Shown in pieces: positions 3,662-36,463 of a stretch of DNA of 64,000 nt. The stretch is taken from positions 128,001-192,000 of the forward strand of contig OY759726.1 of the NCBI GenBank assembly GCA_963662625.1. The letters are read 5' to 3'. Within the stretch, counting starts at the first letter, position 1. Every line of letters starts with the position of its first letter. The position numbers and the translations under genes were made by a program. Source of the DNA: Nitrosopumilus sp. Its GTDB lineage: Archaea; Thermoproteota; Nitrososphaeria; Nitrososphaerales; Nitrosopumilaceae. The notes under the pieces are model-generated. The model did not search any database. It saw only the letters and a list, made by a program, of their open reading frames with translations, and was not told the origin of the DNA.

Positions 3662-4134
3662 CACGCAAACCTCTCGTGCAGCTTGTCCTTGAGGGCCAGG
3701 TCTTCCTCGTCCAGTTCGCCGTAATCCAGCTTCTCGAATGGCTCGCCCGTGTGGTCCGACGCCCATGTATCCATCTCTCTGGTCACGGCGCAACCTGCCC
3801 GGGCGCAGTGTTTGCCGATTCGGGCGCCGCCGCCGTGTCCCCAGGCCCCCGGGTTTTCGGTCAAGCCGCCCTCAATCTCGACGGATGCGGCCCACTTGTG
3901 GCCGCCGTTGTGGGTGCATGGAGGCTCCGGGGGGTCGATGACCACGGCCGTCTGGTGGTCATCGCCGTCGGGATCCGTCACGACGCCGTAGACGCGGCAC
4001 GGCGCGGAGTCTGACCACTCGTCCCGCATCCAGTCGCGGGCCTGCCGGAGGGCGTCGTCCAGGGATTCGGCCTGGATCGTCTCCTCGGTGTCGGAATCAT
4101 CCGTTACGGTGTAGGTCTGCATCTTCCGAGTCAT
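3661..4134 (-). CDS. Hypothetical acidic protein
   Basis: ATGA overlap with the 4131 stop; MTRKMQTYTV start. Confidence 0.65.
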   Translation of the reverse strand: MTRKMQTYTVTDDSDTEETIQAESLDDALRQARDWMRDEWSDSAPCRVYGVVTDPDGDDHQTAVVIDPPEPPCTHNGGHKWAASVEIEGGLTENPGAWGHGGGARIGKHCARAGCAVTREMDTWASDHTGEPFEKLDYGELDEEDLALKDKLHERFA

Positions 4135-4817
4135 GCCGCGGCCTCGCGCTCGCAGTTGGGGCACTCGACGTGCTCGTACGCGGCGTCATGGACCTCGCGC
4201 GCCTTCCAGTCGCACTCGCGGCACGCCAGGACGTGGAGCGAGCGCGCGTTGTAGGGCTCATGCCAGGAGATGACCAGGCCGGAGCAGTCGGGGCAGGGGA
4301 AATGCTTCACCGTGGTGTAGCCCGTCTTGTCCCCGAGCCATCTCCCGTCGCTGCCGTCGTCCCTCCCCTTGTCGTTGATGGCTTTGTCATGGGCGGCCTC
4401 GCGCTCGCAGTTGGGGCACTCGACGTGCTCGTACGCGGCGTCATGGACCTCGCGCGCCTCCCAGTCGCACTCGCAGCACGCCAGGACGTGGAGCGAGCCA
4501 GCGTCGTGGTGCTCATACCAGGAGTTGACCTGGCCGTTACAGTCCGGGCAGGGGACATCCGTTACCGTGGTGTCACCCCCCGCCACCGCGGGGATCCCGC
4601 ACACCTGCCCGGACCCGTCCCGGACTATCTCCGCCGTGGCCGGCACCCTGGCATTCAGGGTCACCGCGTACGACCTGGCGCCGTGCCGCACGATGACGGC
4701 CGCGACGTTGCCGGGCCTGAAGCCCTCCGGGAGGAGGCTCGCCGCCTCCACCGTCTTACCTGCCATGGGGATCTCGCCCCACTCTAGTTCTCCCCTGTAC
4801 TTTGCTACCTGTTCCAA
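4131..4817 (-). CDS. Ubl-fusion 1: SAMP/MoaD-like domain (4575..4817) plus two tandem zinc-ribbon repeats
   Basis: TTG start behind GGAGGTGG; 81-aa module ends in VCGIPAVAGG; cargo is (CPDC..CxEC..CPNC)x2 from a 255-bp-period duplication. Confidence 0.8.
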   Translation of the reverse strand: MEQVAKYRGELEWGEIPMAGKTVEAASLLPEGFRPGNVAAVIVRHGARSYAVTLNARVPATAEIVRDGSGQVCGIPAVAGGDTTVTDVPCPDCNGQVNSWYEHHDAGSLHVLACCECDWEAREVHDAAYEHVECPNCEREAAHDKAINDKGRDDGSDGRWLGDKTGYTTVKHFPCPDCSGLVISWHEPYNARSLHVLACRECDWKAREVHDAAYEHVECPNCEREAAA

Positions 4818-4921
4818 GGAACCACCTCCAGTGATCCGTTGTCCTGCCGTGATGGCAGTGGCTGCCGCGGTTCCGCGGCGGGGGCCTGGCGGCCCCCAGT
4901 CTCGTCCCCTTCCGGCCGCGC
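4575..4921 (-). repeat. Ubl cassette plus type A leader, copy 1 (also 6986..7332 and 11191..11537)
   Basis: About 345-bp near-identical repeat; leader carries three adjacent GC hairpins and the SD. Confidence 0.95.
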
Positions 4922-4939
4922 CGGCCGCGCCGCCGCGCC

Positions 4940-5268: not shown

Positions 5269-5408
5269 TCGTCACGCACCGTCCACACGAACCCGCACGT
5301 CAGTTCCCCGCAGCCATCGCAGAGCATGGGCTCCTGGCCCATCCCAGTCCTGATGGCGATCCTCTGCTCATCGGCGCATTCGTGGCATAGCGGGTGGGGC
5401 GGCATCAT
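5265..5408 (-). CDS. Mini zinc-finger protein (47 aa, not in the ORF track)
   Basis: Hand translation: MMPPHPLCHECADEQRIAIRTGMGQEPMLCDGCGELTCGFVWTVRDE; start/stop overlaps at both ends. Confidence 0.6.
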   Translation of the reverse strand: MMPPHPLCHECADEQRIAIRTGMGQEPMLCDGCGELTCGFVWTVRDE

Positions 5409-7228
5409 TCGTCCTCCCAGTCCCTGTCCCGGATGCGCTCCAGGATCCTCCCGTACTTCTCCTCCGCCTCTTCGACGTCCACCCGGAGGTAGTCATCGTT
5501 GACGCAGATGGAGTAGAACTCGCACTTGGTCAGGATCCGGACGCCGCCTTCCGGGGAGCCCATGATCTCCCTGATCGTCCCCAGTTCGGCATGGGTGGGG
5601 GAACGCCCGGCGTCCTCGTCATCCAGGACCACCGCGTACATTTCCACCCCGCCCTTCCCGGGGAACGTCTCCCATTCGAGGCCGCACTCGAACGACCAGT
5701 CGTCCCCGTCGCAGGAGTAGATCGTTTCCAACCCGCCGGTCCAGGAGGAGGACGATGGAAAGAAGGACGGCTCGCCTATCTCCCCGGTCTCCGGGTCCAC
5801 CTCCACGGCGGCCGAACCCCCGCCGAGACACCCGATCTCGTGGGCCTTCGCGACGTGCCCCGCGATCTTGTCGGATTCGTCCACCATTCCGGCGATCGCC
5901 CGCATCCGGTGGAGGAACCTCCGGTATGTCTCCACGGCCCCATCGGCGGCCTCGATGACCGTCTCTGGAGAGTACAGGCAGCCGGCCACCTCCGCATCGG
6001 TGAGCTTTCGCACGTCCTGGCGTTCGTCGAGACCGGATTCGCGGATCTCGGCAAGGGTGGCCTCGCGCCCCACCTTGTCGAGACCAAACAGTGAATTCCG
6101 GGCCTCCACCAGGCGCCCCTCGAATCCGGCGATGGACGCGTTCTCTACGCAACGCTCGTCAAGCTCCTCCCCAAGGTACACCGAGTCGAGGGAGTAAAGG
6201 CTGACCCAACCCGGGGTGCAGGAGCGGCCGTCTGGACTGGTGGCCACGGCGACGGCGCCGGTCTTCTCGCTTGCCTCAAGGGACTGGTGTGCCTCCCCGG
6301 GGTGGAGCGCGCAGTATACGTGCATCCCCCTCACCAGGGCCTCGATCTCGTCGGAATGGTCGGCTATCCCTTCCGCCGTCCCCCCGGCCAGCCTTTGGCA
6401 GGACTCGGTCAGCAGGCGCATTCCCCGGGCCACGTTGTCCACCATCGTGACGTCGGCCAGCAGCCCAGCGTACGCCTCTTGGGCCTTCAGGATCTCGTCC
6501 CCATAGTACTCCTCGAGGTCGAGGGCGTCGTAAAGCTCCTCGTCGGAGAAGACGCGCACCGGCCTCGACAGGTCTAGCGTGGCCCCCTCCTCGCGGAGCG
6601 TGGCCAGCTCCCCAGCGCTGGCCTCGCGGCCGGCATCGGCCAGGCACGTCCCGGCCCCGGGGTTGAGCGCGTAATGGGTGGCGAACTGGTTTCGCCGGCA
6701 CTCCGGCTCGATCTCGACTGCCCCCAGTTCCGGGTGGTCGTCCAGCCAGAAACCGTACGGCGACATCTCGGCGATGATCCCGTGCCCGTCCTTGGGGGGG
6801 TCACCATCGTCCAGCCCCTCCTCCGGCGTCTGCGTCCTGACGGAGCCTATGCTGCCGGTGGAGTAATTCGCCTCGATCCTCGCGACCATGTTTCCGATGG
6901 CGGCCTCCCTCATCATCGCCATCACGTAGCCCTTGATGTTTTCGGACTCGTCGACGATTTCGGGAATCCCGCGGGCAGCGCATGAGCCCCCCGCCACCGC
7001 GGGGATCCCGCACACCTGCCCGGACCCGTCCCGGACTATCTCCGCCGTGGCCGGCACCCGCGCCCGAAGGCACGCGGCGTACGACCTGGCGCCGTGCCGC
7101 ACGATGACGGCCGCGACGTTGCCGGGCCTGAAGCCCTCCGGGAGGAGGCTCGCCGCCTCCACCGTCTTACCTGCCATGGGGATCTCGCCCCACTCTAGTT
7201 CTCCCCTGTACTTTGCTACCTGTTCCAA
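5405..7228 (-). CDS. Ubl-fusion 2: Ubl (6986..7228) plus acidic cargo with three internal repeats
   Basis: Same 81-aa N-terminus. Repeat anchors GREASAGELATLRE / GREATLAEIRE / GRSPTHAELGTIRE and VRVFSD / VRKLTD / VRILTK. Confidence 0.85.
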   Translation of the reverse strand: MEQVAKYRGELEWGEIPMAGKTVEAASLLPEGFRPGNVAAVIVRHGARSYAACLRARVPATAEIVRDGSGQVCGIPAVAGGSCAARGIPEIVDESENIKGYVMAMMREAAIGNMVARIEANYSTGSIGSVRTQTPEEGLDDGDPPKDGHGIIAEMSPYGFWLDDHPELGAVEIEPECRRNQFATHYALNPGAGTCLADAGREASAGELATLREEGATLDLSRPVRVFSDEELYDALDLEEYYGDEILKAQEAYAGLLADVTMVDNVARGMRLLTESCQRLAGGTAEGIADHSDEIEALVRGMHVYCALHPGEAHQSLEASEKTGAVAVATSPDGRSCTPGWVSLYSLDSVYLGEELDERCVENASIAGFEGRLVEARNSLFGLDKVGREATLAEIRESGLDERQDVRKLTDAEVAGCLYSPETVIEAADGAVETYRRFLHRMRAIAGMVDESDKIAGHVAKAHEIGCLGGGSAAVEVDPETGEIGEPSFFPSSSSWTGGLETIYSCDGDDWSFECGLEWETFPGKGGVEMYAVVLDDEDAGRSPTHAELGTIREIMGSPEGGVRILTKCEFYSICVNDDYLRVDVEEAEEKYGRILERIRDRDWEDE

Positions 7229-7562
7229 GGAACCACCTCCAGTGATCCGTTGTCCTGCCGTGACGGCAGTGGCTGCCGCGGTTCCGCGGCGGGGGCCGGG
7301 CGGCCCCCGGTCTCGTCCCCTTCCGGCCGCGCCTGGCGGCCAGTCCCGGCAAGTGCCGGCCGGCGCATCTACGTTTCGGGGCCTTGGCCCCTTCCGGCCG
7401 CGGGCCCGCCAGTGGGCGGGCCGCCCGCAGCCACGCCTGGGGGGTCACCCCCAAGGCCTGGTGACGCTGCTTGTCCAACGACGGCGCGGGCCACGCCCGG
7501 GTTGGATCCGTGGTGGCATCGGGTGGTCGCGGCCGTCATGCCAACACCTGCCTCACGGGAGG

Positions 7563-10950: not shown

Positions 10951-11433
10951 CTATGCAGACCCCCCGACGTTCCCGGATAGAAATGCTTCCACGGCAATGG
11001 CGTGGGAGCAGTGCTTCCTGAACCGGAAGCCGAGGCAGTCACACCTGCCGCTGCAGACGACGTGGACCCTTTCGGTGATCACCGCGTACGCGCCGTTGCC
11101 TATCTCCCTGACGGCGCCAGAGGCGAACAGGGCCTCCCCCTTCCGCCTGCACCTGGCGCTGGGTTCCACGGCCCGGGCCTCCTGCACGGATCCCCCCGCC
11201 ACCGCGGGGATCCCGCACACCTGCCCGGACCCGTCCAGGACTATCTCCGCCGTGGCCGGCACCCTGGCATTCAGGGTCACCGCGTACGACCTGGCGCCGT
11301 GCCGCACGATGACGGCCGCGACGTTGCCGGGCCTGAAGCCCTCCGGGAGGAGGCTCGCCGCCTCCACCGTCTTACCTGCCATGGGGATCTCGCCCCACTC
11401 TAGTTCTCCCCTGTACTTTGCTACCTGTTCCAA
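10951..11433 (-). CDS. Ubl-fusion 3: Ubl (11191..11433) plus SWIM zinc finger
   Basis: 81-aa module followed by CDCLGFRFRKHCSHAIAV (CxC-x8-CxH SWIM pattern). Confidence 0.85.
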   Translation of the reverse strand: MEQVAKYRGELEWGEIPMAGKTVEAASLLPEGFRPGNVAAVIVRHGARSYAVTLNARVPATAEIVLDGSGQVCGIPAVAGGSVQEARAVEPSARCRRKGEALFASGAVREIGNGAYAVITERVHVVCSGRCDCLGFRFRKHCSHAIAVEAFLSGNVGGSA

Positions 11434-11549
11434 GGAACCACCTCCAGTGATCCGTTGTCCTGCCGTGATGGCAGTGGCTGCCGCGGTTCCGCGGCGGGGG
11501 CCTGGCGGCCCCCGGTCTCGTCCCCTTCCGGCCGCGCTTGGCGGCGCGA

Positions 11550-12131
11550 TCATCTGGATTTGGGGGCGGAGATTGACACCTCCACCTCCCTGATCCCCGA
11601 GTCAAGGACGAACGCCCTGACGTCCTTGTCCAGCCCGGAATATATCGCCCAGACCTGCCCTGCCGGGTTGCTGCCCATGTATCCGACGTCCGTCTCCGAC
11701 GGGTACGCCACCCCGCTAGGGTGGGAGTGGAATATCCCGACCACCTCGACCCCTAGGCCAGCCGCCCTGGCGTGCGCCCCGACCAGCTCCCCGTCCGGGA
11801 TGCTGAATGTGACCGGAGACCTCGCCGCGTTTCCGGTGATCACGACCTCCGTGACCTCCACGGCGCTCCCTGGCCTGCCTAGCAGGACGGCGCATGACTC
11901 GTCAGGCATGCACGCCTCGGCGTGCCTCATGATCTTGCGAAGCCCCTCCCCGCTGAGGGTTATCCTGGACGGCCAGGAACGCGACTCCTCCGAGTCGCAC
12001 CTGCCGCAGTCGCACCCCATGCATTTGGCATGGTCGCCCCCGCTGCAGTTGGTGCAGTGAAATCGCGGGCCGTCCCACTCCCCGGCGCCGGAGCGCCGGA
12101 AGGGGGGGACCCTGCCCTGGTAGGCGCTCAT
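11550..12131 (-). CDS. JAB/MPN+ (JAMM, M67) metalloprotease with N-terminal Cys-rich segment
   Basis: Complete JAMM motif: PDESCAVLLG ... IFHSHPSGVAYPSETD. N-terminal CTNC..HAKC.GCDCGRC. ATGA overlap with the ArdC stop. Confidence 0.9.
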   Translation of the reverse strand: MSAYQGRVPPFRRSGAGEWDGPRFHCTNCSGGDHAKCMGCDCGRCDSEESRSWPSRITLSGEGLRKIMRHAEACMPDESCAVLLGRPGSAVEVTEVVITGNAARSPVTFSIPDGELVGAHARAAGLGVEVVGIFHSHPSGVAYPSETDVGYMGSNPAGQVWAIYSGLDKDVRAFVLDSGIREVEVSISAPKSR

Positions 12132-12967
12132 GCCGCCGGCGTGGGGGCCACCAGGCGGCCGTCGCCAGTCCCAGCTCCCGGCTTGCCGGCGCCGGCCGAG
12201 AGTATCATGTCGAGCACCTTCTCGACCTTGCTCATCACCCTGACGCAGGACCGGCCGACCTCCTCCGGGGTCGCCTCCTTGGAGTAGTGGGCGATGTAAT
12301 TGTAGGAGTTGGCGTCCGCCGCGTGGCCGTACATCCTGGCAAGCACCGCAGCCGCGAGTTCGGCCACGGTCTCCTGCTCCGGATCCTGCCCGGGCTTCAG
12401 GTCCTCGATCCTCGAGTGCGCCAGGTGCGCCAGCTCGTGGAAGAAGACCTTCGGGTCGGAGGTGCACAGGCGTATGAGGCCACGCCCCTTCGAGAAGCTT
12501 CCCTCTTCCCCCCTGACCGTCTCGTCGTACTTGACGTCGGCGCCCCACTTTCTGGCCACCTCGAGGAGGGGCGGGGGCTCGACGTTCGAGTCTGCAATTT
12601 CAAGGTCGTCTCCCTCCGTGTCCTCGAAACGGAACACGGGGACGCAGCGGAATCCGGTGACGAACTCCCTATCCTCCTCCCCGTCCGGGCCTTGGATCGT
12701 GCGCTTCGCCACGCAGGGGGCCAGTATGTACGCGGCCTTGCTGCCCTTCCTGACCTGCCTGCCGACCTTCTGCCACTGCCTGTAGCCCCTGGCGTCGCCG
12801 GTGCCGGCGATGAACATGAAGAGCCTGTTGCTCATGCTCCAGGAGTCGGACGGCCTCCCGACCTTGAGCTTCAGGTACGTGGCCTTGACCATGTCCGGAA
12901 ACTCCTCGGAGGAGAACGCGTCGACTATCTTCTGGAGCTGCTCTATGGCCTTCTGGGTGCTGGGCAT
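12128..12967 (-). CDS. ardC: ArdC-like antirestriction protein (ssDNA-binding domain plus zincin metallopeptidase)
   Basis: WSMSNRL...GYRQWQKVGRQVRKGSKA; HELAH...ETVAE. Confidence 0.85.
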   Translation of the reverse strand: MPSTQKAIEQLQKIVDAFSSEEFPDMVKATYLKLKVGRPSDSWSMSNRLFMFIAGTGDARGYRQWQKVGRQVRKGSKAAYILAPCVAKRTIQGPDGEEDREFVTGFRCVPVFRFEDTEGDDLEIADSNVEPPPLLEVARKWGADVKYDETVRGEEGSFSKGRGLIRLCTSDPKVFFHELAHLAHSRIEDLKPGQDPEQETVAELAAAVLARMYGHAADANSYNYIAHYSKEATPEEVGRSCVRVMSKVEKVLDMILSAGAGKPGAGTGDGRLVAPTPAA

Positions 12968-13953: not shown

Positions 13954-14344
13954 GATACCACCTCCGTGATATGTCGTGCCGCTCTCGCGGTCGGCGGGGG
14001 CCATGCCCCCGCGGGGCGGGCATCGTCTTCCCGGTGCCTCGGTAGTCGTTCATCCCGATCGGGATGGGTTGTCGTATTCCCCGACCCGCGCCCGGCACAC
14101 GCCGGGTTCGGGTTTCGGCGAGGCCCGCGCGGGACCAAGCCAACCCGGCCAGTGAGGCCGAGCATCCGGCGGCTGTCTGTTCCGCCAGCCGGAATCCTCA
14201 GGGGGTTTGCCCGCATCCAAGGCGGGTCACGGCTCTGAGAGTGGCCGTGATTCGCCCCGCCGCGCCGCAGGCGCCCGGGACACGTCATTTCCGGGCAGTT
14301 CCCCGGAAGTGGCGCTGGGCGCCGGCGGCGCCGGCCTGGGTTCC
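13711..14344 (-). repeat. Ubl cassette plus type B leader (634 bp), copy 1 (pairs with 15359..15992)
   Basis: Identical at offset 1648 apart from one patch in the Ubl coding part; many inverted repeats, including the ATCCCGATCGGGAT palindrome. Confidence 0.95.
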
Positions 14345-15992: not shown

Positions 15993-15995
15993 GGC

Positions 15996-25975: not shown

Positions 25976-27762
25976 CCCGTGTCTCCCCCAGCCCCGGCAA
26001 GGCCGTTCAGGAAGTCACTTATTCGCGCGTTGGCGTCGGGAAGATGCACCGGGATTGGAAGGCCGTCTATTCCGGTAGCGCTGTGGCTTATGAGCAGCCA
26101 CTGGCCCACGCCAAACCGCAGCGATTCCTGCAACGTTTCGTCAGATAGCCCGAATGCCTCCTGTATTTTTTCCCTGTCCGATGCCCGCGGGAGCTTGCTC
26201 ACAAAGTACGTGTGCGGCTGCCCGAGTATGTTGGTGTCCAGGTACACTATCCTCTGGGTGGCTATCCCTATGCCCAGGCCGTACTTTCTCCCACGTCTCG
26301 CGAGCTGCTCCCCCATATGCTTTGATTCCTTCATCCCGGGCTGTTTGTCATCCTGCGCGATGAATTGGTCAGCCTCGTCGTAGATGAACGAGACGGGCGG
26401 CGATATGATCCCTCCCTCCCTTCTTGAGCGGAGCATACGCATTCCAAGCGTGTTTGAGAATTCCCTGACCTTCACGTCGTCTGTGTCCTGTATGATGTAA
26501 AGCGAGCTGGTTGAATCCCGGTTGAGATCCATAACCATGTCGCCGCCTGAGATCTTGTATTTTTGATCCACCTTCTCAACGTTTGAGAGCGTCTTCTTGG
26601 TGTCATTCAGCTTCAAAATAACCCTGAGCCTTAGGTTGTCTGCCTTTGCATGCGAACTCTGGGTAAAGTCATGGCTGTCCAGTTTTGTGATCAGGGTCTC
26701 TATGTCACTGACGGTGCATTTCCTACGGCCGCATCCATCCAGTATTGAAATGAGTTCCCGCGAGGCAGCTGATGTGTCTGCTGAGTCGACGATGTCCCGG
26801 AGCAGTTTTGCAATAGTCTGATCGTCTGGAATCAACACTTTGATCTTTCCACCCATCAGCATGCTTTTGACTGGCTTGTGGAACATCTCTCGTTTGCCAG
26901 CAAGCATCTTTGGGAGTACCGTGGTCTTCACTATGTCCATGGCTGCAGTGTCTGCATTGCTCGCAGATGCGTCACCCCAGAAACGATGCACGGAGCTTGG
27001 GACTGCATCGTATGAAAGAAACACGATGTACGCGTCATCGCTGCCGTACAGTACGTCTGCGAGCAGTATGCCGTATTCCCCCATGAGATCGTAGATCACG
27101 GCCTTGACGGAACCGCGGCTTTCAAATATCTTGGACGTGACTGTGCTCAGAAGGTTTGACTTGCCGGCATTGGTGTATGCGAACACCCCAAAGTGCGTCC
27201 GTATCATGCTGTCCCACAGCGCGAGTATCTCGACGTCTTTCATGTTTGCGAGGGTTCCGAGCACTACGGTGCCGTCCTGACCCTGTAGGTCATGGTTTAT
27301 GATCCTACGCGTCCACTCGGAGTTGAGCAGCCTGGCCCGCTCGCCAGGCATGGGGATGTTGGTCTCTGGTGCCATCTCGGGCTCTCTGCCGTCCATGGAG
27401 CGAGGCCTTGTCACCTCAAACCTGCTTGGCACTGCATCGCACACTATCTTGGTTGTGTCCTCGACCGGCTTGTTCTGGTTCCAGTCCTTGGATGCGCTCA
27501 TTGCGGCTTCTTCCACGAATCCCGGATACCCGTCCATGCTTGCCATCATGGCATAGTGTGTGGGCATTACAGACGTTATCCTCATCACGCTGTAGTGGTC
27601 GACGTCTTTGTTGCTTGAAAAGTTCCTCACGGCCACCAGCGACCCTTCCCGGATCGCATTCATGTGGGAACGCACGAAAGGAAACCAGATCGTAAACCCC
27701 ATGCTTGTCTGGCTTGACTTTCTCATGTCCATCAGCGTTCCTGATATTCCATCTTCAAACAA
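25972..27762 (-). CDS. herA: HerA-family ATPase/helicase
   Basis: N-terminal barrel; HFGVFAYTNAGKS; YDLMGEY; DEADQF; ARRGRKYGLGIGIATQR. Confidence 0.88.
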   Translation of the reverse strand: MFEDGISGTLMDMRKSSQTSMGFTIWFPFVRSHMNAIREGSLVAVRNFSSNKDVDHYSVMRITSVMPTHYAMMASMDGYPGFVEEAAMSASKDWNQNKPVEDTTKIVCDAVPSRFEVTRPRSMDGREPEMAPETNIPMPGERARLLNSEWTRRIINHDLQGQDGTVVLGTLANMKDVEILALWDSMIRTHFGVFAYTNAGKSNLLSTVTSKIFESRGSVKAVIYDLMGEYGILLADVLYGSDDAYIVFLSYDAVPSSVHRFWGDASASNADTAAMDIVKTTVLPKMLAGKREMFHKPVKSMLMGGKIKVLIPDDQTIAKLLRDIVDSADTSAASRELISILDGCGRRKCTVSDIETLITKLDSHDFTQSSHAKADNLRLRVILKLNDTKKTLSNVEKVDQKYKISGGDMVMDLNRDSTSSLYIIQDTDDVKVREFSNTLGMRMLRSRREGGIISPPVSFIYDEADQFIAQDDKQPGMKESKHMGEQLARRGRKYGLGIGIATQRIVYLDTNILGQPHTYFVSKLPRASDREKIQEAFGLSDETLQESLRFGVGQWLLISHSATGIDGLPIPVHLPDANARISDFLNGLAGAGGDTG

Positions 27763-27768
27763 TTGAAA

Positions 27769-29592
27769 CTACCTCCCAAAATTGCGCCTTATTTCCCTTA
27801 ATGTGTTTATCAGCGGCCGCGATCGGAACTTTATCTCGGAGCTATCGAGCAGTTTTCTCACGCTGTCCCTCATGGACTTTGCCCCCTGGTCTGCCTTGTG
27901 GAGGGGGTCGGGATACCCTATCATCTCCGAGAAGTGGTTTTTCGTGAGCGTGTCAAGCAGGAAATAAGTCACCAGTTGTCCCCTGTTTGTAGTCTTGTTT
28001 GACTGGTAGAAGAACGGCCTCATCTCGCCGGTGCTGGCGTCACTGATCTCGATCCGTTCTGACTCCCCGTCCCATTCCGGAAATGCGAGCCTGTCTATGA
28101 ATATGGCGTGGCCGGTAAGCGGGGACTCGGCACTGCGCCTGGTGTAAAACTGCGCTATGGATCTCAGGAACAGGCATTCCGGCCTGGCTATCCCCCCAAA
28201 CGTGCCGCCAAACTCCTCCTTCCCGCCTCGCTCCTCAACGCGCAGTGTCATGAATGTGGAGTCAAACTCTATCGTGCCCCATGGGCTGTTCAGCCCGTCG
28301 TCTATGTACGGAAGCATCTCGCAGAATACGCGGTCTGTAGGGGGCAGCACTCCGAATGTTTTGCCTGACAATTGCCTGTATTTTCCAAAATGCCGGCACA
28401 CGCCAATGTAGTTTTTTGTCAGGTATGCAGATGCCGAGTCTTTTGCTATCCCGGTCAGCAGTATCTTCCTTGACCAGCATTCTTCTATCAGTGCCCGCAG
28501 CCCTACAGCGATGAGGAACCTCACGTCGTCGGGCGACATCCATTTTGCCACTTTCCTGCCCGCGTCAACCGCCTCGTATTTGAGAGCGTTCTCCCTCTTG
28601 TCGAGGAATATGGCCTTGCAGATTCCCTGGAACATGGACTTTGTCTTCTCCCAGCTCTTGTACGGTTCAATCTTTTGGGTTATGTCGCCAGACGGTCCGA
28701 GCTCCACTATTCCGTTCCCCGCCAGCCCCCGAACCACGCGCTCGAGCCTCTCGCGCCTTATTCCTGTTTCGGATGAGATGTCTTCCATGCGGATGGCCCC
28801 TGGTCCTTTCTCGTGCAGGAACCGCATGACTGATGACCTTTCCGTGAATTTCTTCGTGCTTGGGATCCCCAGTTCAGAGTTGAATGGGTGGGCCTGGGCT
28901 ACAATTACGTCCTGCTTGCTAAACACCATGCCATCAGACATCGCGCAACCCACAAGTCGAACCTTGTCTGCGCCAAAGTCAGTGTAGCCCAGCATGCCGC
29001 TCAGGCTGTTGTCTATCAATATTATGTCCGGGCGGTCCAGGTTTGAACTCGTGGCCGAATTGTACGCAAGGAAGATCTCGGCAAGCTGCATCATCGGGAG
29101 GTGCATGCTCGTAAGCTCTATCTTGTCTGACTCGGATACCGCGAACATGTTTGCCTCCCTGCCGTCGTTTACCTCCAGTATCCTGCTGTATGGAATTGGC
29201 ACGAATGCGACCATGCTCACGTCCTTTTCTATCTCCCACCGCCTGTATTCCACAGTCGCCTCCCCGCCAGACAGGGACAGCACCCCCTTTGCGCCATATG
29301 CCCCCCCGTAAAACGAGATGAACTCCCCCGAGCTGTGCTTGTGGCAGCTCCCATCCACCGCAACAAAGTTCAGCTCGCGTTTCCCAAAAAAGCCCTCGGT
29401 CTCGTCTGCCACCATGTTAACAAATTCCCTGTCCGCGAGCCTTCCTCCCATGTTAACTGTCAGGTCCCTGAAAAAATCATTGTAAAACTCCCTTGCGTTT
29501 GATGAGCCAAGCCGCACGGTTTCCTCATATTCGTCCTGGGCCTGATCCAAGCTTCTCTTGTATGACGAATAAATCTCGGAGATCCGCCCCAT
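27769..29592 (-). CDS. nurA: NurA-family nuclease with HTH-like insert
   Basis: FVAVDGS, ILIDNSL, GIAKDS, GYPDPLHKAD; adjacent to HerA. Confidence 0.85.
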   Translation of the reverse strand: MGRISEIYSSYKRSLDQAQDEYEETVRLGSSNAREFYNDFFRDLTVNMGGRLADREFVNMVADETEGFFGKRELNFVAVDGSCHKHSSGEFISFYGGAYGAKGVLSLSGGEATVEYRRWEIEKDVSMVAFVPIPYSRILEVNDGREANMFAVSESDKIELTSMHLPMMQLAEIFLAYNSATSSNLDRPDIILIDNSLSGMLGYTDFGADKVRLVGCAMSDGMVFSKQDVIVAQAHPFNSELGIPSTKKFTERSSVMRFLHEKGPGAIRMEDISSETGIRRERLERVVRGLAGNGIVELGPSGDITQKIEPYKSWEKTKSMFQGICKAIFLDKRENALKYEAVDAGRKVAKWMSPDDVRFLIAVGLRALIEECWSRKILLTGIAKDSASAYLTKNYIGVCRHFGKYRQLSGKTFGVLPPTDRVFCEMLPYIDDGLNSPWGTIEFDSTFMTLRVEERGGKEEFGGTFGGIARPECLFLRSIAQFYTRRSAESPLTGHAIFIDRLAFPEWDGESERIEISDASTGEMRPFFYQSNKTTNRGQLVTYFLLDTLTKNHFSEMIGYPDPLHKADQGAKSMRDSVRKLLDSSEIKFRSRPLINTLREIRRNFGR

Positions 29593-29623
29593 CGGGGTTA
29601 GTCCGCAGGCCTCGTATTAAAGA

Positions 29624-30613
29624 TCATTCGTCTGAGCGTTCCAAGCATCTTCTCATCCTAGCTCCCAGGATCATGGCGAAGAGGGGTGGCATGGCGTTGC
29701 CTATCTGTTTCATCTTGCTGTATTTGGAACCGGAAAACCCAAACCAGTCTGGAAACCCCTGCAGCCTGGCGGCCTCCCTGACAAAAAGTGTGCGCCTCCT
29801 TCCGTCACGGGTCCGGATCCGGTGCATGTCGCTTGAGTGCCCTCCCAGGTTTCTGCATGTCAGTGTCCGCGCTGGTCTGCCACGATCCAGGTCGCGTGCC
29901 CGGCGACATTGGGATGCCATTTCGTATGCCGATATGTATCGGTCCATCTCGGGCGTCAGGTATGACGGTTCCTCCCTCTCCGCTCTGGGGATGTTTTTCA
30001 GCGCCTCCCCGGCGGTCACCTGTACCCCGAGCCCGGACGGGGGCAGGTATCCACCGTGATGCCCTATTGCAATCACGCGTTCCCGGCTTTGCGGAACCCC
30101 GTAATCAGAGCAGTTTGCGACCGACACGTCCACAGAGTACCCGAGTTTTTCGAGCCTTTTCATCGATGATGTGAAATAGTCCCTGTTTCTGTACAGCATC
30201 CCGCGCACGTTCTCAAAGACCCACATCCTGGGCTTGAGTTGTTTCACGGCCGCTACGAATGAGGGAATTCCATTCCTGTCGTCCATCGGGCCCATCTGCT
30301 TGCCGCGCACGCTGAATGGCTGGCACGGGGGTCCGCCTGCCACTATGTCTGCGTATGGAAAGTCGTACCCCGGAGTGATGGATCCGTTCACGCAGGTTCC
30401 CCTCAGGTTGGAATTATATGTGGCGCAGCAGTCCGGGTTGCTGTCTATTCCGATCACCTTGAAACCTGCCGCCTCCAGTCCCAGGGACAGCCCGCCTGCG
30501 CCGGAATATATGTCAAGCACCGCGTATCTTGGGTTTTTTTTTGGCCTCAGAATTTTATCCAGTTCCGCCGCATAGTTTTTCTTGAGTGCGCACGGGTCGA
30601 TCAAGGTTTGCAA
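29624..30613 (-). CDS. dcm: C5-cytosine DNA methyltransferase
   Basis: YSGAGG, GGPPCQPFS, ENV, PQSRER, EAARLQGFPD, QIGNA. Confidence 0.95.
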   Translation of the reverse strand: MQTLIDPCALKKNYAAELDKILRPKKNPRYAVLDIYSGAGGLSLGLEAAGFKVIGIDSNPDCCATYNSNLRGTCVNGSITPGYDFPYADIVAGGPPCQPFSVRGKQMGPMDDRNGIPSFVAAVKQLKPRMWVFENVRGMLYRNRDYFTSSMKRLEKLGYSVDVSVANCSDYGVPQSRERVIAIGHHGGYLPPSGLGVQVTAGEALKNIPRAEREEPSYLTPEMDRYISAYEMASQCRRARDLDRGRPARTLTCRNLGGHSSDMHRIRTRDGRRRTLFVREAARLQGFPDWFGFSGSKYSKMKQIGNAMPPLFAMILGARMRRCLERSDE

Positions 30614-30911
30614 TACATCTCATCTCAACAAAAAATAATTTATTAGTATTCTTTAAAAGCAGGACAGGGGGAGTCTACGGCACATAATTCCCCGTGGGGC
30701 AGTCTGGCAGATCGGGATCTAAACGCCAACACCAAGCACGCCGGCCCCGCAGAAACTAGCCTTCAAGCACAGGAACCACGGAAGGCACTTTCTTGCAGAT
30801 AGGCACCGGGTGTGACGCCATACTTGTGATTATCCATGTCGTGATGGAGTGGATGGGGCACACACAGCCCATGTGGAAAAAATCAAATAACAATGGAGGA
30901 TAGGTTGGGTA

Positions 30912-31535
30912 TTGGCCACCATCTTTATTTCGCATAGCAGGAAAGATGAGGAGCTAGTGCGCGCAGTGAAAAAAGCATTGGAGAATGTGGGACACACTCC
31001 AGTGATTGAAGAGTTGATTCCAACCGAAGAACAGGAAGCGGTACCATACGAAGAGATTCAAACAAACGTGAAAGAAAGCGAATTTCTTTTTCTGTTTTTG
31101 ACTGATAACGTGGTGGCCACGGAGTTTACGCAGAATTGGGTGTGCCACGAAGCAGGACTGGCAGCGGCGTACTCGAAAAGACTTTTTGTGTTTGAGAGGG
31201 CTGGAACCCCAATAAAATTCCCAATTCCATATCTTACGGATTATGCATTGTTTGACCCAGAGGACCCAGAAGATATATTGGGACTGCAAAACCTTGCCAA
31301 GGATTTGGGGAAACTTAGACGCGATCTCCTGACTGCAGGCGGTGGGGCGGCGTTGGGGGCAACGTTGGGGCCGGTTGGGATGGTGTTGGGGGCAGTGGGG
31401 GGTTATCTGATAGGCCCAAAGCCACCAAAGCCACTTACTGTAAAATGCGATCACTGCAATGTTGGTTTCAATTACTATTCTATAGAAAAAGCATTCAGGT
31501 GCCCGTCTTGTAGAAGAGACATCGTCCTGGGGTGA
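30912..31535 (+). CDS. TIR-domain protein with glycine-zipper segment and C-terminal zinc ribbon
   Basis: IFISHSRKD...NWVCHEAGLA; GGGAALGATLGPVG..GAVGG; CDHC...CPSC. Confidence 0.85.
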   Translation: MATIFISHSRKDEELVRAVKKALENVGHTPVIEELIPTEEQEAVPYEEIQTNVKESEFLFLFLTDNVVATEFTQNWVCHEAGLAAAYSKRLFVFERAGTPIKFPIPYLTDYALFDPEDPEDILGLQNLAKDLGKLRRDLLTAGGGAALGATLGPVGMVLGAVGGYLIGPKPPKPLTVKCDHCNVGFNYYSIEKAFRCPSCRRDIVLG

Positions 31536-31539
31536 CAAT

Positions 31540-31842
31540 GTGGAAACGGTGACCCGGCGTGAATATGCTCATGATGCTGAACTCGTGTTTGCCATACTTC
31601 TACCCATCCTCAGCAAGCTCTATGATATAAAAAATATCCACAAAAAGATCAAATGTGTGGAGGTGTCTTCTGGTGCGTCCTTGTTTTCTTTTGGGGAGAC
31701 GTTTGAGGTTTCTGTCGCTGCGAATGATGGTGGTTCTGTTGTCAGGGTGAGGGCAAAATCAAAAGTCCGCTGGAACGTGACAAGCAACGTGGAAGGAAAA
31801 GCGGAAGAACTTCTTGATTTGCTAGGGAAAAATTTGGGTTAA
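31540..31842 (+). CDS. Small hypothetical protein, probably co-transcribed with the TIR gene
   Basis: Starts 4 nt after the TIR stop; same low GC. Confidence 0.7.
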   Translation: METVTRREYAHDAELVFAILLPILSKLYDIKNIHKKIKCVEVSSGASLFSFGETFEVSVAANDGGSVVRVRAKSKVRWNVTSNVEGKAEELLDLLGKNLG

Positions 31843-31862: not shown

Positions 31863-32669
31863 CTACCCCGCGAGCCTCGACTCTATCGCCCGCTCGAACA
31901 CCCAGAACGGCTGCGCGCCGCTCACGATCTCCCACCCGGCGCCGTCGCTGCCTACCAGGAATCCAGGCGTGCCCGTGATCCCGTATTCTGAGCCGTCGGA
32001 ATAGTCGGCCATGACCTCCGCCTCCATCCCGGGGTCGTCGAGGCAGGAGGAGAACTCCCCCGCGTCAAGCCCCAGCGCCGCGGCGTAGCCAACCAGCGCC
32101 GCCCTGAGCCCGGGTCCCGCCGACGCCCACTCGGCCTGCGCCTCGAACAGCGCGTCGTGGTACTCCCAGAACGCGCCCTGCTCGTCGGCGCACTCGGCGG
32201 CGACGTGCGCGGGGAGCGCGGACTGGTGGAACCCGAGCGGAAAGTCGCGGTACACGAAGGACGCCTTGCCGGTGTCGACGTACCTGGCCTCGATGAGGGG
32301 GAGGGTCTCCTCGTAGAACCTCAGGCAGAACGGGCACTCAAAGTCGGAGAACTCGACGATGGTGACAGGGGCCCGGGGGTCGCCCTTGGCCGGGTCGTCG
32401 TCGACCGACACCGAGTCCGGGCCGGCGTGGTCGGTTCCGTCCCAGGCCGCCCCGGGCGGCGCGGCATCGTGGGCCCCGGCACGTCCCCCCCCGCCGGCGC
32501 CCCCATCACGGAACCCGTCGGGGAGGACGTACACCGGCGCCGGCTGCGCGCCGCCGTCCATGATGCCGCACGCGTGCGCCCCGGCCAGGAACGAGGCTGC
32601 GGAGGCAAGCGCCACCACGGCCCAGACGAGCCTCGGGGAGCCCCGGCACCCGCACTTTTCCCCGCTCAT
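31863..32669 (-). CDS. dsbA: DsbA-family thioredoxin
   Basis: EFSDFECPFC, YRDFPL, GITGTPGF, GAQPF; N-terminal TM segment. Confidence 0.92.
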   Translation of the reverse strand: MSGEKCGCRGSPRLVWAVVALASAASFLAGAHACGIMDGGAQPAPVYVLPDGFRDGGAGGGGRAGAHDAAPPGAAWDGTDHAGPDSVSVDDDPAKGDPRAPVTIVEFSDFECPFCLRFYEETLPLIEARYVDTGKASFVYRDFPLGFHQSALPAHVAAECADEQGAFWEYHDALFEAQAEWASAGPGLRAALVGYAAALGLDAGEFSSCLDDPGMEAEVMADYSDGSEYGITGTPGFLVGSDGAGWEIVSGAQPFWVFERAIESRLAG

Positions 32670-33688
32670 TCCCCGCCGCCCCCGCGGCCTTCCCCGGCGC
32701 CAGGCCGGCCGTCCCCCGCCGGGATCCCGCCGGCACTGCCGCCTGCCCCCTGCAGCCCGTCATCGGGGGCGCCGCCGACGCGTCCGCGGCCCCCTGGGGG
32801 TGGGGCGCCCCCTCCTTCTTCCCCTCCCCCGCGCCGCGGGCCAGGGCCGGGGACCCTTCCCGGGTTCCTCGCCGCCAGCATCTCCAGGCCAAGCGCGTTC
32901 GAGAACACGGGATCGTCGGGGACCGTTATCTCGGCGTCCATGATCCTCCCCATCGCCTCCCTGACCCCCGGGATCAGCGAGCCGCCACCCGCGAGGATTA
33001 TGGCGTCCCCGGCATGGTCCATCCTGGACGCCTCGTCGGCGACGTGCTCCGCCAGCAGCCTGGCCAGCTTGGCCACCATCCCGGGGTTCCCAGAAAACAG
33101 CGCCTCGTGGCCGACGTACGAGTCCCTCCCGCCGCCAAGCTGCGACGTCACGAACTCGCTTGCCTTCCTGATGGACCTCCCGTCGACCCTCCCGGGCCGG
33201 ATGGATATTATCTCAGTGGTGCCGTGGCCGATGTTCACGACCATCCCCTGCTTCATCCCGCAGTACACCAGGGTGCCGTACGCCTGGGGGAGTATCCGCA
33301 GGGTGGCGGGGCCAAGCCTCGAGGAGAACATCCTCTCCATCCTCTTCCTCTCGCCCCTGGCGTCGTAGGTGATCCCGACCGCCAGGTTGAGCGGCACGCC
33401 GGCGTCCCAGCCGACAGACTCCGCCGCCTTCATCGCCAGGGCCTCGTACCCACGGCCGTTGTGCGGCATCCCGTGCCTCACCGGCCTTATGAGTATGGCC
33501 CTGTCGCCGCCCCCCATCCGGATCGCCTCGGAACCTACGGCCTCGGCCAGCACGCTCTTCCCAGCCTCGTCCTCCACGGTCTTCCTCCCGTCGGAGTACA
33601 TGCAGGAATACAGCGAGGGGAACGACACCTTCCTCCCCCCGGACGCGACCTTGGTGAACCCGGTGCCGATGTCGATCCCCACGTCCAT
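32666..33688 (-). CDS. ParM/StbA-like actin-fold ATPase
   Basis: GIDIGTGFTK, VNIGHGTT, ILAGGGS, FSNALG; CTTAAAT box about 20 nt upstream. Confidence 0.85.
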   Translation of the reverse strand: MDVGIDIGTGFTKVASGGRKVSFPSLYSCMYSDGRKTVEDEAGKSVLAEAVGSEAIRMGGGDRAILIRPVRHGMPHNGRGYEALAMKAAESVGWDAGVPLNLAVGITYDARGERKRMERMFSSRLGPATLRILPQAYGTLVYCGMKQGMVVNIGHGTTEIISIRPGRVDGRSIRKASEFVTSQLGGGRDSYVGHEALFSGNPGMVAKLARLLAEHVADEASRMDHAGDAIILAGGGSLIPGVREAMGRIMDAEITVPDDPVFSNALGLEMLAARNPGRVPGPGPRRGGGEEGGGAPPPGGRGRVGGAPDDGLQGAGGSAGGIPAGDGRPGAGEGRGGGGE

Positions 33689-33707
33689 GCCGACCACCAC
33701 CCAGTGA

Positions 33708-35033
33708 TTATTTAAGGAGGGGGGCCTCAATCCCACTCCCAGCGCGCCCGGACCCGGCCAGGACGTACCGGCCAGGGCCGCGCCCCCGCCCGTCCCGCTC
33801 CAGGATCCCGGCGTGCAGCAGGGCCTCGATGCACGCCCTCCCCACCCTCACGTTGCCGGCGTGGCGACTCTCGGCCGGCGGGGGGACGTCGCCATCCGAG
33901 AACCGCCCCCCCGGCACGGCCCCCAGGAACCTCCCCAGCAGCGATCGCCGGTCGCCCGGCCTGCCAAGGTCGACCCTGAACTGCCTGCCGGACGGGGTGA
34001 TGATGAAGCAGCAGAACCCCCCGGACTTCCCCCGGTAGTACGCGTGGAGGTCCGGCGGAGGCCTCCCCCACGCCCCGGGCCAGGTCACGAAGGCCAGCGC
34101 GTGGCCGCCTGGGACGTTGGCCGAAAGGTCGGCCTCCCAGGTGTCGAAGAACCCGGACTGGTCGTCGCGAGACCACGACTCCTTGTGGTACACCGGGATG
34201 AGGACGTCCGACAGCGACGGCACGCCCCCCACCCTGGAGCGGGACTCGGAGACGTACTCCTTCCTGACGTCGAACCCGAGGTACCCCCTCCCCAGCGCCC
34301 TGGCGACCCTGGGCACCTGCCCGCTGCCGCACATGGGATCCATCACCATGTCGCCCTTCCCGCTGAACAGCGTGACCAGGCGGAACGGGATCTGCTCCGG
34401 GAAGGGACAGGGGTGGGAGACCGTCCCGGGCGGCACAGGGGCCACGTTCCACACGGAGTTTGCCACCTCCCTCTTCACCACGCGGTTGAGCGGGATCCTC
34501 CCGGACCTGCTCCTCCCCCCCTTCCCCTTCTGCAGCACCAGTATGTGCTCGTGCATCAGGTTGGCGCGAAAGTACCCTGGGTACGGGTTCTGGATGAACG
34601 AGCCGGCGCGGTTCCTGGAGCCGTGCCCTGTCCCCCCGACCTTGTTCCATATTATGGAGTCGCGCAGCACCCACCCGCCGTCCTCCTCGCCGCTCACCAG
34701 CCTGGCCAGCAGCATGGATGGGAGGGGGACGACCCTGCCGTCGGCGACCTCGTCGCCAACCACTATGCAGCACCTCCCGCCGGGCCTCGTGGCCCTGAAC
34801 ACCTGGGAGAACACCTCCTCCATGTCGTCCAGCCAGGACCCGGTGGTGGCCTTGCCGGCGCCCCTGTACCATCCCCCTCTCCCGGAGGCGTGGGCGTCAT
34901 AGTCTATGGCGTTGCGGTATGGCGGCGACGTGACGGTCAGGGCCACGGATCCGGGTCTGACCAGCCCGGAAAGGTCCCTGGCGTCGGCGCGGCGGATGGA
35001 GCCGCCTGGCCCCCGGCCCGGGGCGGCCGTCAC
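33708..35033 (-). CDS. N4-C/N6-A DNA methyltransferase (beta class), orphan
   Basis: TSPPY, HPCPFPE, DPMCGSG. Confidence 0.9.
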   Translation of the reverse strand: MTAAPGRGPGGSIRRADARDLSGLVRPGSVALTVTSPPYRNAIDYDAHASGRGGWYRGAGKATTGSWLDDMEEVFSQVFRATRPGGRCCIVVGDEVADGRVVPLPSMLLARLVSGEEDGGWVLRDSIIWNKVGGTGHGSRNRAGSFIQNPYPGYFRANLMHEHILVLQKGKGGRSRSGRIPLNRVVKREVANSVWNVAPVPPGTVSHPCPFPEQIPFRLVTLFSGKGDMVMDPMCGSGQVPRVARALGRGYLGFDVRKEYVSESRSRVGGVPSLSDVLIPVYHKESWSRDDQSGFFDTWEADLSANVPGGHALAFVTWPGAWGRPPPDLHAYYRGKSGGFCCFIITPSGRQFRVDLGRPGDRRSLLGRFLGAVPGGRFSDGDVPPPAESRHAGNVRVGRACIEALLHAGILERDGRGRGPGRYVLAGSGRAGSGIEAPLLK

Positions 35034-36463
35034 TGGCAGCGGCCTCCCCAGCGGGCCCGTGCCAGATCAAGCCGGCGCTCGTAGAGCGCTATCACGAGGT
35101 CGACGTCCCCCCCTATGGCGGAATCCCAGTCTATGGCGCGCAGGGCCCCATCGAGCGTGAGCATCCTGGGGGTCCTCCCCCCGATCCCGCGGATCATGGA
35201 GATCTCCTCCCCGGGGTCGCCGCCCGCGGAGGCGAGCTTCCCGCCATCGGCCAGCAGCACCACCATGTCGGCGCCGTCCCGTCGGACCGTGAACCACTCC
35301 CCAGGCATGATGGGCTTCCACGCGTCCGGGCCGGCCACGTAAAGCACCTCCGCCCCGCTGAACGTGAAGTGGCGGTTGGGCCTGGCGCGGACGCCAAGAT
35401 CCCCGTCGCGGGACGCCATCACCACGCAGTGCGCCACCCCGCTGACGGCCGCCTTCTTCACGGCATCCTCCACGAGGAAGCGGATGGACTCCACGCAGTC
35501 CAGTATCGCCGGTTCCCCCTCCGCGTAGTCCAGGACCGGGACGCCCCCATTCCCGGGGGACAGCCTGGCGACTCGCCCGCAGTCCGGGCACCTCGCCTTC
35601 CTGCCATGGGCGCCGCCCAACGGCCACGCGCAGTCCCCCCACGAGTGGTGGACGCGCACGCAGTCGGGCGTGGGCGCCACCACGTCCACCCTGATCTCCA
35701 GGCTGGGGAGCCCCTTCCCCTTCCAGCCGGGTTCCGGCTCGACGTACAACCCATCATCCGCCCGGCGGCCCCCGCGGGGGCCCTCCACGCTGCCGGGATC
35801 GTCCACCCCAGTTTCAAAGTCGCCGCCCATGGGGCCGTACATCACCGCCCTGAACCCCCCGGCGCCGTGGTCCATCTTCATGATCTCCCCCAGGCACGCC
35901 AGCCTGGCGCGCTCCTGGTCGCCGCCGTACACCCTGAATGGGTCGCATCCCTCGTCGAACTCCACGACGTACATCCCCATCGGTTCCATGGGGGAATGGA
36001 ATGGGGCGAACGCGCCGTGGGGAAGGCTGCCTCCCCCCTCCTTCACGCCAAGGCCCGCCGCCCCCGGCGACTTCCCGCCGGAGTCGGGCTTTGGGCTGCA
36101 GCCCGCCCCCTTCCCCGCGGGGCCCCCGGACTTGCGCGGCCTGCCCCTCCTCCTTTTGGCGCCGCCGGCCGGCCCTTGGCCAGGCACCTGCGACTCGCGC
36201 GGCCCTTCCCCCCCGGGCGCGCCCCCGGCCACGGCCGGGATCCCGCACACCTGCCCGGATCCGTCACGCGCCAGTTCGGCGCCCTCGGGCACCATCGAGT
36301 CCAGCGTGACGGCGTAGGACATCCCGCCGTGCCTCACGATCACCGCCGCCACGTCGTCCGCCGCGAACCCGTCAGGGAGGAGGCTCCTGGCCTTCGCCGC
36401 CTTCCCAGGCTTGGGGATCTCGCCCCACTCCAGCTTCCCTCTGTACTTTGCCAACCGTCCCAT
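35030..36463 (-). CDS. Ubl-fusion 6: divergent Ubl (36221..36463), AT-hook-like motif, and a repeat related to the Ubl-fusion 2 cargo
   Basis: MGRLAKYRGKLEWGEIP...VCGIPAVAGG (81 aa); KRRRGRPRK; TTTTATA box about 23 nt upstream. Confidence 0.8.
   Translation of the reverse strand: MGRLAKYRGKLEWGEIPKPGKAAKARSLLPDGFAADDVAAVIVRHGGMSYAVTLDSMVPEGAELARDGSGQVCGIPAVAGGAPGGEGPRESQVPGQGPAGGAKRRRGRPRKSGGPAGKGAGCSPKPDSGGKSPGAAGLGVKEGGGSLPHGAFAPFHSPMEPMGMYVVEFDEGCDPFRVYGGDQERARLACLGEIMKMDHGAGGFRAVMYGPMGGDFETGVDDPGSVEGPRGGRRADDGLYVEPEPGWKGKGLPSLEIRVDVVAPTPDCVRVHHSWGDCAWPLGGAHGRKARCPDCGRVARLSPGNGGVPVLDYAEGEPAILDCVESIRFLVEDAVKKAAVSGVAHCVVMASRDGDLGVRARPNRHFTFSGAEVLYVAGPDAWKPIMPGEWFTVRRDGADMVVLLADGGKLASAGGDPGEEISMIRGIGGRTPRMLTLDGALRAIDWDSAIGGDVDLVIALYERRLDLARARWGGRCQ

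Follow-up and report, generated by a model that had tools for sequence, protein, structure and literature searches.

The stretch of DNA considered here (the window, 64,000 nucleotides long) covers positions 128001-192000 of the 1.86-Mb single-contig genome of a Nitrosopumilus sp., an ammonia-oxidising archaeon. It carries a mobile element in which the same module of 81 amino acids (aa), ending in Gly-Gly, heads six reading frames on the minus strand. Each module is followed by a further protein sequence, which we call the cargo. A whole-genome search added a seventh intact fusion gene and a decayed eighth copy of the module. The copies, and the leader sequences before them, are listed below; positions are those of the window unless the genome is named.

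Fusion gene 1: 4131-4817, minus strand; module 4575-4817, then a 147-aa acidic cargo with two zinc-ribbon-like repeats
Fusion gene 2: 5405-7228, minus strand; module 6986-7228, then a 526-aa acidic cargo without a family match
Fusion gene 3: 10951-11433, minus strand; module 11191-11433, then a basic cargo of 79 aa that matches SWIM weakly
Fusion gene 4: 12970-13953, minus strand; module 13711-13953, then a 246-aa acidic cargo with a two-fold repeat
Fusion gene 5: 15260-15601, minus strand; module 15359-15601, then a 32-aa tail whose first 8 residues are those of cargo 2
Fusion gene 6: 35030-36463, minus strand; divergent module 36221-36463, starting with ATG, then a 396-aa cargo with a GRP-rich basic stretch
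Fusion gene 7: genome 124536-125018, 3 kb before the window; intact, with a 79-aa zinc-ribbon-like cargo
Decayed eighth module copy: genome 1777690-1777905
Leader type 1, about 110 nucleotides (nt): 4818-4927, minus strand; before copy 1, and also at about 7229-7340, at about 11434-11545 and before copy 7; contains the motif GGAGGTG
Leader type 2, about 397 nt: 13954-14350, minus strand, before copy 4; also 15602-15998, before copy 5

The proteins encoded by copies 1-5 are 96-99% identical to copy 1, and that of copy 6 is 70% identical. At the DNA level, 13 of 243 sites differ among copies 1-5 and 7, while copy 6 differs from those at 63-67 sites. A DNA alignment shows that the similarity stops at the second Gly codon in every copy and that the sequences beyond it are unrelated, with the exception of copies 2 and 5, which have 24 further bases in common (encoding SCAARGIP). 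The first residue after GG is D, S, S, A, S, A and A in copies 1-7 respectively. An earlier interpretation of this DNA, made from its letters alone (hereafter the sequence-only reading), had given the coordinates of the six modules in the window, their first cargo residues and the end of the similarity at the GG codons; the coordinates and residues are all correct, and the DNA alignment agrees with the boundary, copies 2 and 5 running on by their 24 bases. Copies 1-5 start with TTG, and copy 6 has ATG at the equivalent position. In the copies with the common leader, GGAGGTG lies 6 nt before the start of the module.

Leader type 1 is common to copies 1, 2, 3 and 7, and leader type 2 to copies 4 and 5. 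The sequence at 4818-4935 (minus strand) is predicted to fold into three GC-rich hairpins with a long-range closing stem that includes the ribosome-binding motif (minimum free energy -66.8 kcal/mol, z-score -2.18), and from this prediction the folded 110-nt leader may regulate translation. The variable sites within the modules are mosaic: a block at nt 153-169 and a site at nt 197 are combined in all four possible ways, and we therefore conclude that the module copies recombine. The ratio of nonsynonymous to synonymous substitution rates (dN/dS), measured against copy 6, is 0.19-0.26, which corresponds to purifying selection, and the module protein is therefore under constraint. In three DNA sequencing runs from one study, possibly of the source sample, contigs break at the module, and in two of the three the summed depth at the module is about 5-10 times that of the flanks; the raised depth fits a multi-copy repeat and is not independent support for it.

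The cargo frames have a GC content at third codon positions of 0.82-0.91, as in real genes of this genome. The 32-aa tail of copy 5 is atypical, with a GC content at second positions of 0.76; fusion gene 5 is probably a recombinant or read-through copy, and its tail may be read-through. Cargo 2 has an isoelectric point of 4.36 and contains 20% Asp and Glu, in keeping with the acidic character that the sequence-only reading had given it; the triple repeat also described there was not confirmed, self-BLAST being uninformative in that it gave no output even for cargos 1 and 4, which are visibly repeated. The two-fold repeats of cargos 1 and 4 can be seen in their translations. The SWIM label of cargo 3 corresponds to a match under the Pfam cut-off (E 0.023). 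A homologue search with cargo 6 recovered only cargo 6 itself.

A related cargo domain is found without the module in the following gene.

Unfused gene directly downstream of fusion gene 1: 3661-4164, minus strand; its C-terminal domain is homologous to a cargo domain of P0013, a module-fused relative

The C-terminal domain of the P0013 cargo matches the product of 3661-4164 at 49% over 77 aa. As this domain is fused in the one and unfused in the other, the tag has been attached to or detached from cargo genes over evolutionary time.

Relatives, fold and tail of the module

With a profile built from the six copies, a search of 1.84 billion representative proteins gave 32 matches at E <= 0.001, 6 from this genome and 26 others; 25 of the 26 were retrieved, P0029 (1936 aa, a partial match) being left out. 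Free-standing proteins of 83-118 aa that terminate exactly at ...PAV[AST]GG make up 15 of the 25, so that the GG boundary is conserved in homologues, a check that the sequence-only reading had asked for. A further four run 2-6 aa beyond GG, and another four carry 33-182 aa of unrelated cargo after it. The residue that follows GG is Ser in 7 of the 8 extended representatives. Gly-Gly is invariant in all seven copies and present in 23 of the 25 relatives, and in the free-standing members the extreme C-terminus is the best conserved part. Across genera, the identity of the module protein is 30-55%.

Strong full-length matches occur in this genome (seven) and in six other Nitrosopumilaceae genomes. 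The latter contain 14 distinct GG-type frames, which partly overlap the representative set: eight stop at GG, one has a 6-aa tail and five are extended by 20-182 aa. Sampling across the phylum gave matches in 10 of 401 genomes, all from one order, and 47 of 301 genomes of the family show some match, the weaker matches being mostly to the membrane proteins described below. Within the sampled genomes, the module family is confined to Nitrosopumilaceae and sister families. No relative was found in viral and metagenome contigs scanned with the family alignment.

The core of the module is also homologous to the C-terminal domain of a group of membrane proteins of about 200-260 aa, present at one per genome in many Nitrosopumilaceae and in two sister families. 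The homology covers the whole module (profile positions of about 2-82). These membrane proteins end in ...CGISRF or ...GIPKxxDGFNxW, without GG, and no Pfam or NCBIfam family covers them. From these sequences, the element tag looks like a soluble derivative of the host domain that gained a new tail. We note that the membrane protein gene at L060:1489-2100 (minus strand) adjoins an ammonium-transporter-like gene, and that there are about 25 similar loci (L053-L075, L089, L090).

Searches for a known family to which the module might belong were negative. Neither Pfam nor NCBIfam has a family that matches the module, ThiS, MoaD and SAMP included; a search of the genome with PF02597 found two host domains and not the module; a sequence search of the PDB found nothing, the best match being ribokinase at E 0.84; and the ESM Atlas, queried with the module and with its relative P0011, gave no usable match. 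Profile comparison of the module family with 27 ThiS-family domains from related genomes, using hhalign, aligned no more than the final 11-12 columns (at probabilities of 31% and 22%), with a global probability of 0.35%. A forced hhalign alignment follows ThiS colinearly through strand, helix, hairpin and tail.

Structures were predicted with AlphaFold for copy 1 (27 sequences; mean predicted local distance difference test, pLDDT, 87.7) and for the relative P0007 (43 sequences; pLDDT 85.0). Both models consist largely of beta structure plus one or two short helices, in the order weak strands, short helix, hairpin, strands, last strand and floppy tail. In the copy 1 model the last strand comprises residues 72-76, and the tail after it is of low confidence. 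Foldseek searches of the PDB with both models gave nothing at E <= 0.001 (best 2.7 and 1.4), with no ubiquitin-like chain among the matches listed, and there were no matches at E <= 0.001 among viral predicted structures. Self-cleavage was considered as well, a split intein being the top Foldseek match of the second model; at E 1.4 and a TM score of 0.27 this match is not significant, and the candidate was rejected.

The sequence-only reading had expected a beta-grasp fold, which none of these approaches recovers, hhalign reaching the tail only; by the standard it had set itself, this speaks against its idea. It had also recognised a signature of SAMP, MoaD and CysO in the C-terminal half of the module. 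The tail is indeed of the ThiS/MoaD/SAMP type, and the module body has no family match. We therefore describe the tail as ubiquitin-like and the body as not demonstrably so; a much-derived beta-grasp is compatible with the predicted order of elements and with the forced alignment. With no Pfam or NCBIfam family, and with neither its sequence nor its predicted fold finding a relative in the PDB, the module is a candidate new fold.

The closest counterpart of the tail is found in the host itself.

Host ubiquitin-like protein (Ubl) fused to an activating enzyme (E1): genome 663994-664935 (L032:439-1776), minus strand; SAMP1-like-GG-UbaA-like, just downstream of a threonine-synthase-like gene

The single E1 (ThiF) of the genome is here fused behind a SAMP1-like domain, with the junction ...YILPAVAGG|SGQLSD, and the fusion scores as SAMP1-like plus UbaA-like with NCBIfam. 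The last six residues of the module (PAVAGG) are identical to the tail of this host Ubl. In related genomes, all seven Ubl-E1 loci examined have the junction [IL]LPAV[AS]GG followed by S or E. A Ubl-E1-TBP fusion of Thaumarchaeota is on record in an earlier paper (PMC2948915). We note that the host Ubl-E1 fusion would itself need a cut after GG to free its Ubl.

This ThiF is the only match in the genome and lies 530 kb away, with none in the element. The sequence-only reading had seen neither E1 nor conjugating enzyme (E2) in the window and suggested that an E1 be sought elsewhere in the host: there is one, as the Ubl-E1 fusion, and the absence of ThiF from the element stands. For E2, searches of the genome with UQ_con, Prok-E2_A and Prok-E2_B gave no match, and are uninformative, the control genomes being silent too.

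The JAB within the array

Two further genes of the element lie between copies 3 and 4.

JAMM/MPN+ metalloprotease (the element JAB): 11550-12131, minus strand; N-terminal Cys-rich stretch, then Prok-JAB (PF14464, E 9.4e-19)
ArdC-N-like gene: 12128-12967, minus strand; HELAH motif, PF08401 at E 3e-4 (just under the cut-off), with a 4-nt overlap with the JAB start

The element JAB gene ends 117 nt upstream of the start of copy 3. Its metal-site motif E...HxH...S..D (with HSH) is intact, and an alignment of six JABs shows no variation at E78, H135, S136, H137, S145 and D148, which bears out the earlier description of an intact JAMM gene immediately upstream of copy 3. The genome has three JABs. 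Host JAB no. 1 shares 52% identity with the element JAB over 132 aa, and host JAB no. 2 shares 26%. For both the element JAB and host JAB no. 1, the best NCBIfam match is desampylase, in both cases under the cut-off. In the PDB, the element JAB is related to JAMM1 (5ld9, 5lda) and to an Rpn11-like protein from archaea (6fjv); a homologue search with this JAB gave three distant relatives.

A complex between residues 50-193 of the JAB and the module was modelled. Its ipSAE score is 0.87, compared to 0.14 for the best of three controls; we used our own alignments, so the calibration of the score, in which 58 of 80 solved complexes and 2 of 110 mismatched pairs reach this mark, holds only roughly. 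At least 98% of contacts recur between the runs, and the partners have a pLDDT of no less than 86. The part of the module in contact with JAB residues 78, 135, 137, 145 and 147-148 is its residues 75-81. The model thus supports, without showing it, binding of the module tail in the JAB active site.

Proposed processing of the fusions and its alternatives

We propose, from sequence comparison and modelling and with about an even chance of being right, that the fusion genes encode pre-proteins cleaved by a JAMM protease, whose tag has an undescribed fold and a tail that mimics that of a host protein. A mobile-element module would have acquired the C-terminal tail of a host SAMP1-like protein (PAVAGG), and seven element genes would be translated as module-GG-cargo pre-proteins. 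A metalloprotease of the JAMM1/desampylase type would bind the module and cut the peptide bond after the second Gly. Here, either the element JAB (11550-12131) or the host enzyme that gave rise to it would do the cutting; in related elements the host enzyme alone would do so. Each cut would free the cargo and one module with an exposed Gly-Gly end. The host Ubl-E1 might then activate this free module, or the module might act as a competitor of the host Ubl for E1 or JAB. Since extensions are trimmed off, the module gene could become fused to any downstream gene without harm, and recombination between near-identical module copies would shuffle the cargos. Both the cleavage after GG and what the freed module does we infer from sequence and models.

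A more far-reaching version, which we regard as unlikely, is that the module founds a family of modifiers without a ubiquitin fold: the element would have captured a domain of a host membrane protein and grafted a SAMP tail onto it, the host JAMM and Ubl-E1 would mature the effectors, and the freed tag would be conjugated or would jam the only E1/desampylase pathway of the host. If true, this would be a weapon against the host that works by tail mimicry.

The sequence-only reading had already put forward maturation of Ubl fusions by the element's own enzyme. The GG boundary, the host-type tail, the intact JAB and the modelled docking speak for it; the beta-grasp fold was not shown, and the co-occurrence of JAB with the module is not conserved in other genomes. 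Several observations weigh against cleavage as we propose it. In the six other genomes that carry modules, no JAB adjoins them: each has two or three Prok-JAB matches, the nearest 95-167 kb off or on other contigs. General cleavage would therefore require a host enzyme, and the link to JAB rests on one genome and an assumed host enzyme. The score of the complex may reflect memory of JAMM-Ubl structures, the tail being SAMP-like. The fold is not recognisably ubiquitin-like by hhalign or Foldseek. Two of the 25 relatives (P0018 and P0032) are fused without GG. The host membrane proteins carry the domain without GG, so the domain has a function for which no Gly-Gly end is needed. Finally, the free-standing copies imply that the module also acts by itself, for which a role as processing tag alone does not account.

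Some of these points favour an alternative in which nothing is cut. The module, as a soluble copy of the C-terminal domain of the host membrane protein, would be an N-terminal adaptor that docks the element proteins (or itself, when free) on the partner of the membrane protein or on the membrane, with AVAGG-S as a flexible linker. The homology of the whole module to the C-terminal domain of host membrane proteins, the two fused relatives without GG and the lack of JAB near modules in all six other genomes agree with this; a linker does not account for the exact ending of 15 of 25 relatives at a conserved PAV[AST]GG, for the identity of the tail to that of the host Ubl, or for the element copy of a host desampylase-like JAB beside a fusion gene. 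We think it unlikely to be the answer. The opposite possibility, which corresponds to the full form of the sequence-only reading, is that the module is a true, highly derived beta-grasp modifier of the ThiS/MoaD type, conjugated by the host E1, with the fusions as its precursors. It would account for the identity of the tail to the host SAMP1-like domain, the colinear forced alignment with ThiS and the single UbaA-like E1 of the host, and the predicted order (strand-strand-short helices-hairpin-strand) is compatible with it. The statistical support is limited to the last 11-12 columns, Foldseek gives no ubiquitin-like match for either model, and the element has no E1, the only ThiF being 530 kb away, with the E2 searches and their controls silent; we consider this reading quite improbable.

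It might also be argued that what matters is the DNA rather than the peptide, the repeat being an expression or recombination cassette (promoter, leader, start and 81 codons) that swaps the genes at its 3' end. The repeat does include 110-397 nt of upstream leader, and the copies are mosaic, with the first 24 nt of cargo 2 in copy 5. Against this, the protein is conserved across genera at 30-55% with dN/dS of 0.19-0.26, the module also exists as a stand-alone gene, and recombination accounts for the shuffling and not for the conserved GG end. As a sufficient explanation the cassette is distinctly improbable, and as a description of the DNA it is compatible with pre-protein processing rather than exclusive of it. 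The module could in principle also be a long leader peptide of the double-glycine NHLP/Nif11 kind, which a C39 peptidase-exporter would cut off; its length of about 80 aa, its AGG end and the variable sequence beyond this end agree with that. The module has no Pfam or NCBIfam match, no peptidase-exporter family occurs among 34 neighbouring proteins scanned with Pfam, the cargos are folded-looking proteins of 79-526 aa and the predicted module fold is mostly beta, all of which make this reading very improbable indeed.

The surrounding element and comparison with known systems

Module-bearing elements have several genes in common. Two, of about 750 aa, are GHKL-like; others have products of 134, 228 and 196 aa; the rest encode SNase-like nucleases that are secreted, an actin-like protein and a DNA methylase. 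In the present element the GHKL-like genes are two tandem paralogues with GHKL/HSP90-like ATPase boxes (window 1-2721 and genome 126161-128464), which match an NCBIfam HSP90 family at E 6.7e-5 and have no Pfam or PDB match; a PDB search with the 754-aa GHKL-like neighbour also gave none. They are the most conserved genes of this type of element, and in related elements are often directly downstream of the module gene. Just downstream of fusion gene 6, at 32666-35033 (minus strand), are an actin-like gene (ParM/ALP-type) and an N4/N6 DNA methylase, both of which are also present in the related element at locus L083. In Nitrosopumilaceae, the module serves as a marker for a family of integrated elements that otherwise lack annotation.

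Within the element, 22500-31600 is an island of lower GC content (52-58%). It encodes a BsuBI/PstI restriction enzyme and methylase, a HerA-like ATPase with a NurA-like partner, a C5 cytosine methylase and a TIR-domain protein. At genome 1776190-1779405 (L008), 1.6 Mb off, the left end of the element recurs in part, with a near-identical coiled-coil membrane gene and the decayed module copy. Just left of the element, two open reading frames of equal length (222 aa; genome 100177-100845 and 120453-121121), 20 kb apart, have the same composition and identical first 40 residues, and flank a gene for a 2579-aa protein; the pair may mark a duplication or an element border. No integrase was found among the 34 neighbouring proteins scanned with Pfam, and the borders of the element are therefore not defined. 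No Rfam family reaches its gathering score in the window. The weak C/D-box match sR1 at 21752-21820 (minus strand; 19.9 bits against a cut-off of 45, E 0.54) was the only match in 1-40000, where Rfam at E <= 1 found no hammerhead, and a tRNA search found none.

Eukaryotes make ubiquitin as fusions to ribosomal proteins and as polyubiquitin, in which the GG-ended tag is removed by a deubiquitinase and short C-terminal extensions cap free copies. The genes described here resemble these in having a GG-ended tag ahead of unrelated proteins. They differ in fold and in lineage, their cargos belong to a mobile element, and their cleavage is a prediction. If the cleavage is true, they would be an archaeal counterpart of the eukaryotic ubiquitin-fusion genes, in a domain of life that is central to ideas on the origin of ubiquitin signalling.

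The sequence-only reading knew of no description of such an array in prokaryotes. Cleavage of Ubl fusions by JAB is in fact known: release by JAB of Ubl moieties fused to other proteins, including phage TAPI/TAPK, was predicted in 2006 (PMC1779556), and for the BubAB pre-protein it was shown by Edman sequencing that JAB cuts a Ubl-E2 fusion after a conserved Gly (PMC11601596). The module family, a domain of about 80-90 aa, and the multi-cargo array do appear to be undescribed. We found no description of the module, and its tail motif is absent from the searchable papers, which are the main texts of a limited collection; the main text of a survey of thaumarchaeal integrated elements (PMC6563490) mentions no JAB, ubiquitin, MPN, ArdC or SWIM.

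One of the closest comparisons is type I Bub (BubAB/BubCD): an N-terminal Gly-ended tag is fused to another protein, the JAB domain of BubCD cuts just after the Gly, and the system is carried on mobile DNA. In Bub the fusion partner is a single one (its own E2), the JAB is fused to a dedicated E1, and the tags have beta-grasp domains; here there are seven unrelated non-enzymatic cargos, no recognisable beta-grasp and an archaeal host. The element has no ThiF, and so lacks the arrangement by which systems of the Bub, Bil and CBASS type are recognised, in which Ubl, E1 and E2 are encoded together. TAPI/TAPK are likewise proteins of mobile elements with an N-terminal ubiquitin-like part and a predicted JAB release after the last Gly; on the account given in the same 2006 text, they are a single structural protein with a JAB fused to NlpC/P60, and there is no cargo array.

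Archaeal sampylation (SAMP1, UbaA and the desampylase HvJAMM1) provides a further close comparison. The module has the PAVAGG tail, and the best family of the element JAB is desampylase; the host Ubl, like the element fusions, is made with an internal GG, being fused to E1. Unlike SAMP, the module falls outside ThiS/MoaD/SAMP by the tests run, is multi-copy and mobile, and is fused to cargo and not to E1. What is unusual in the present system is the multi-cargo array, the tag of unrecognised fold and the mimicry of a host Ubl tail. If the fusions are cleaved as proposed, this would be the first prokaryotic case found of one GG-ended tag on many unrelated cargos. An element that copies both the recognition tail of a host Ubl and the protease that trims it would, if this is true, represent a new form of host-pathway hijacking.

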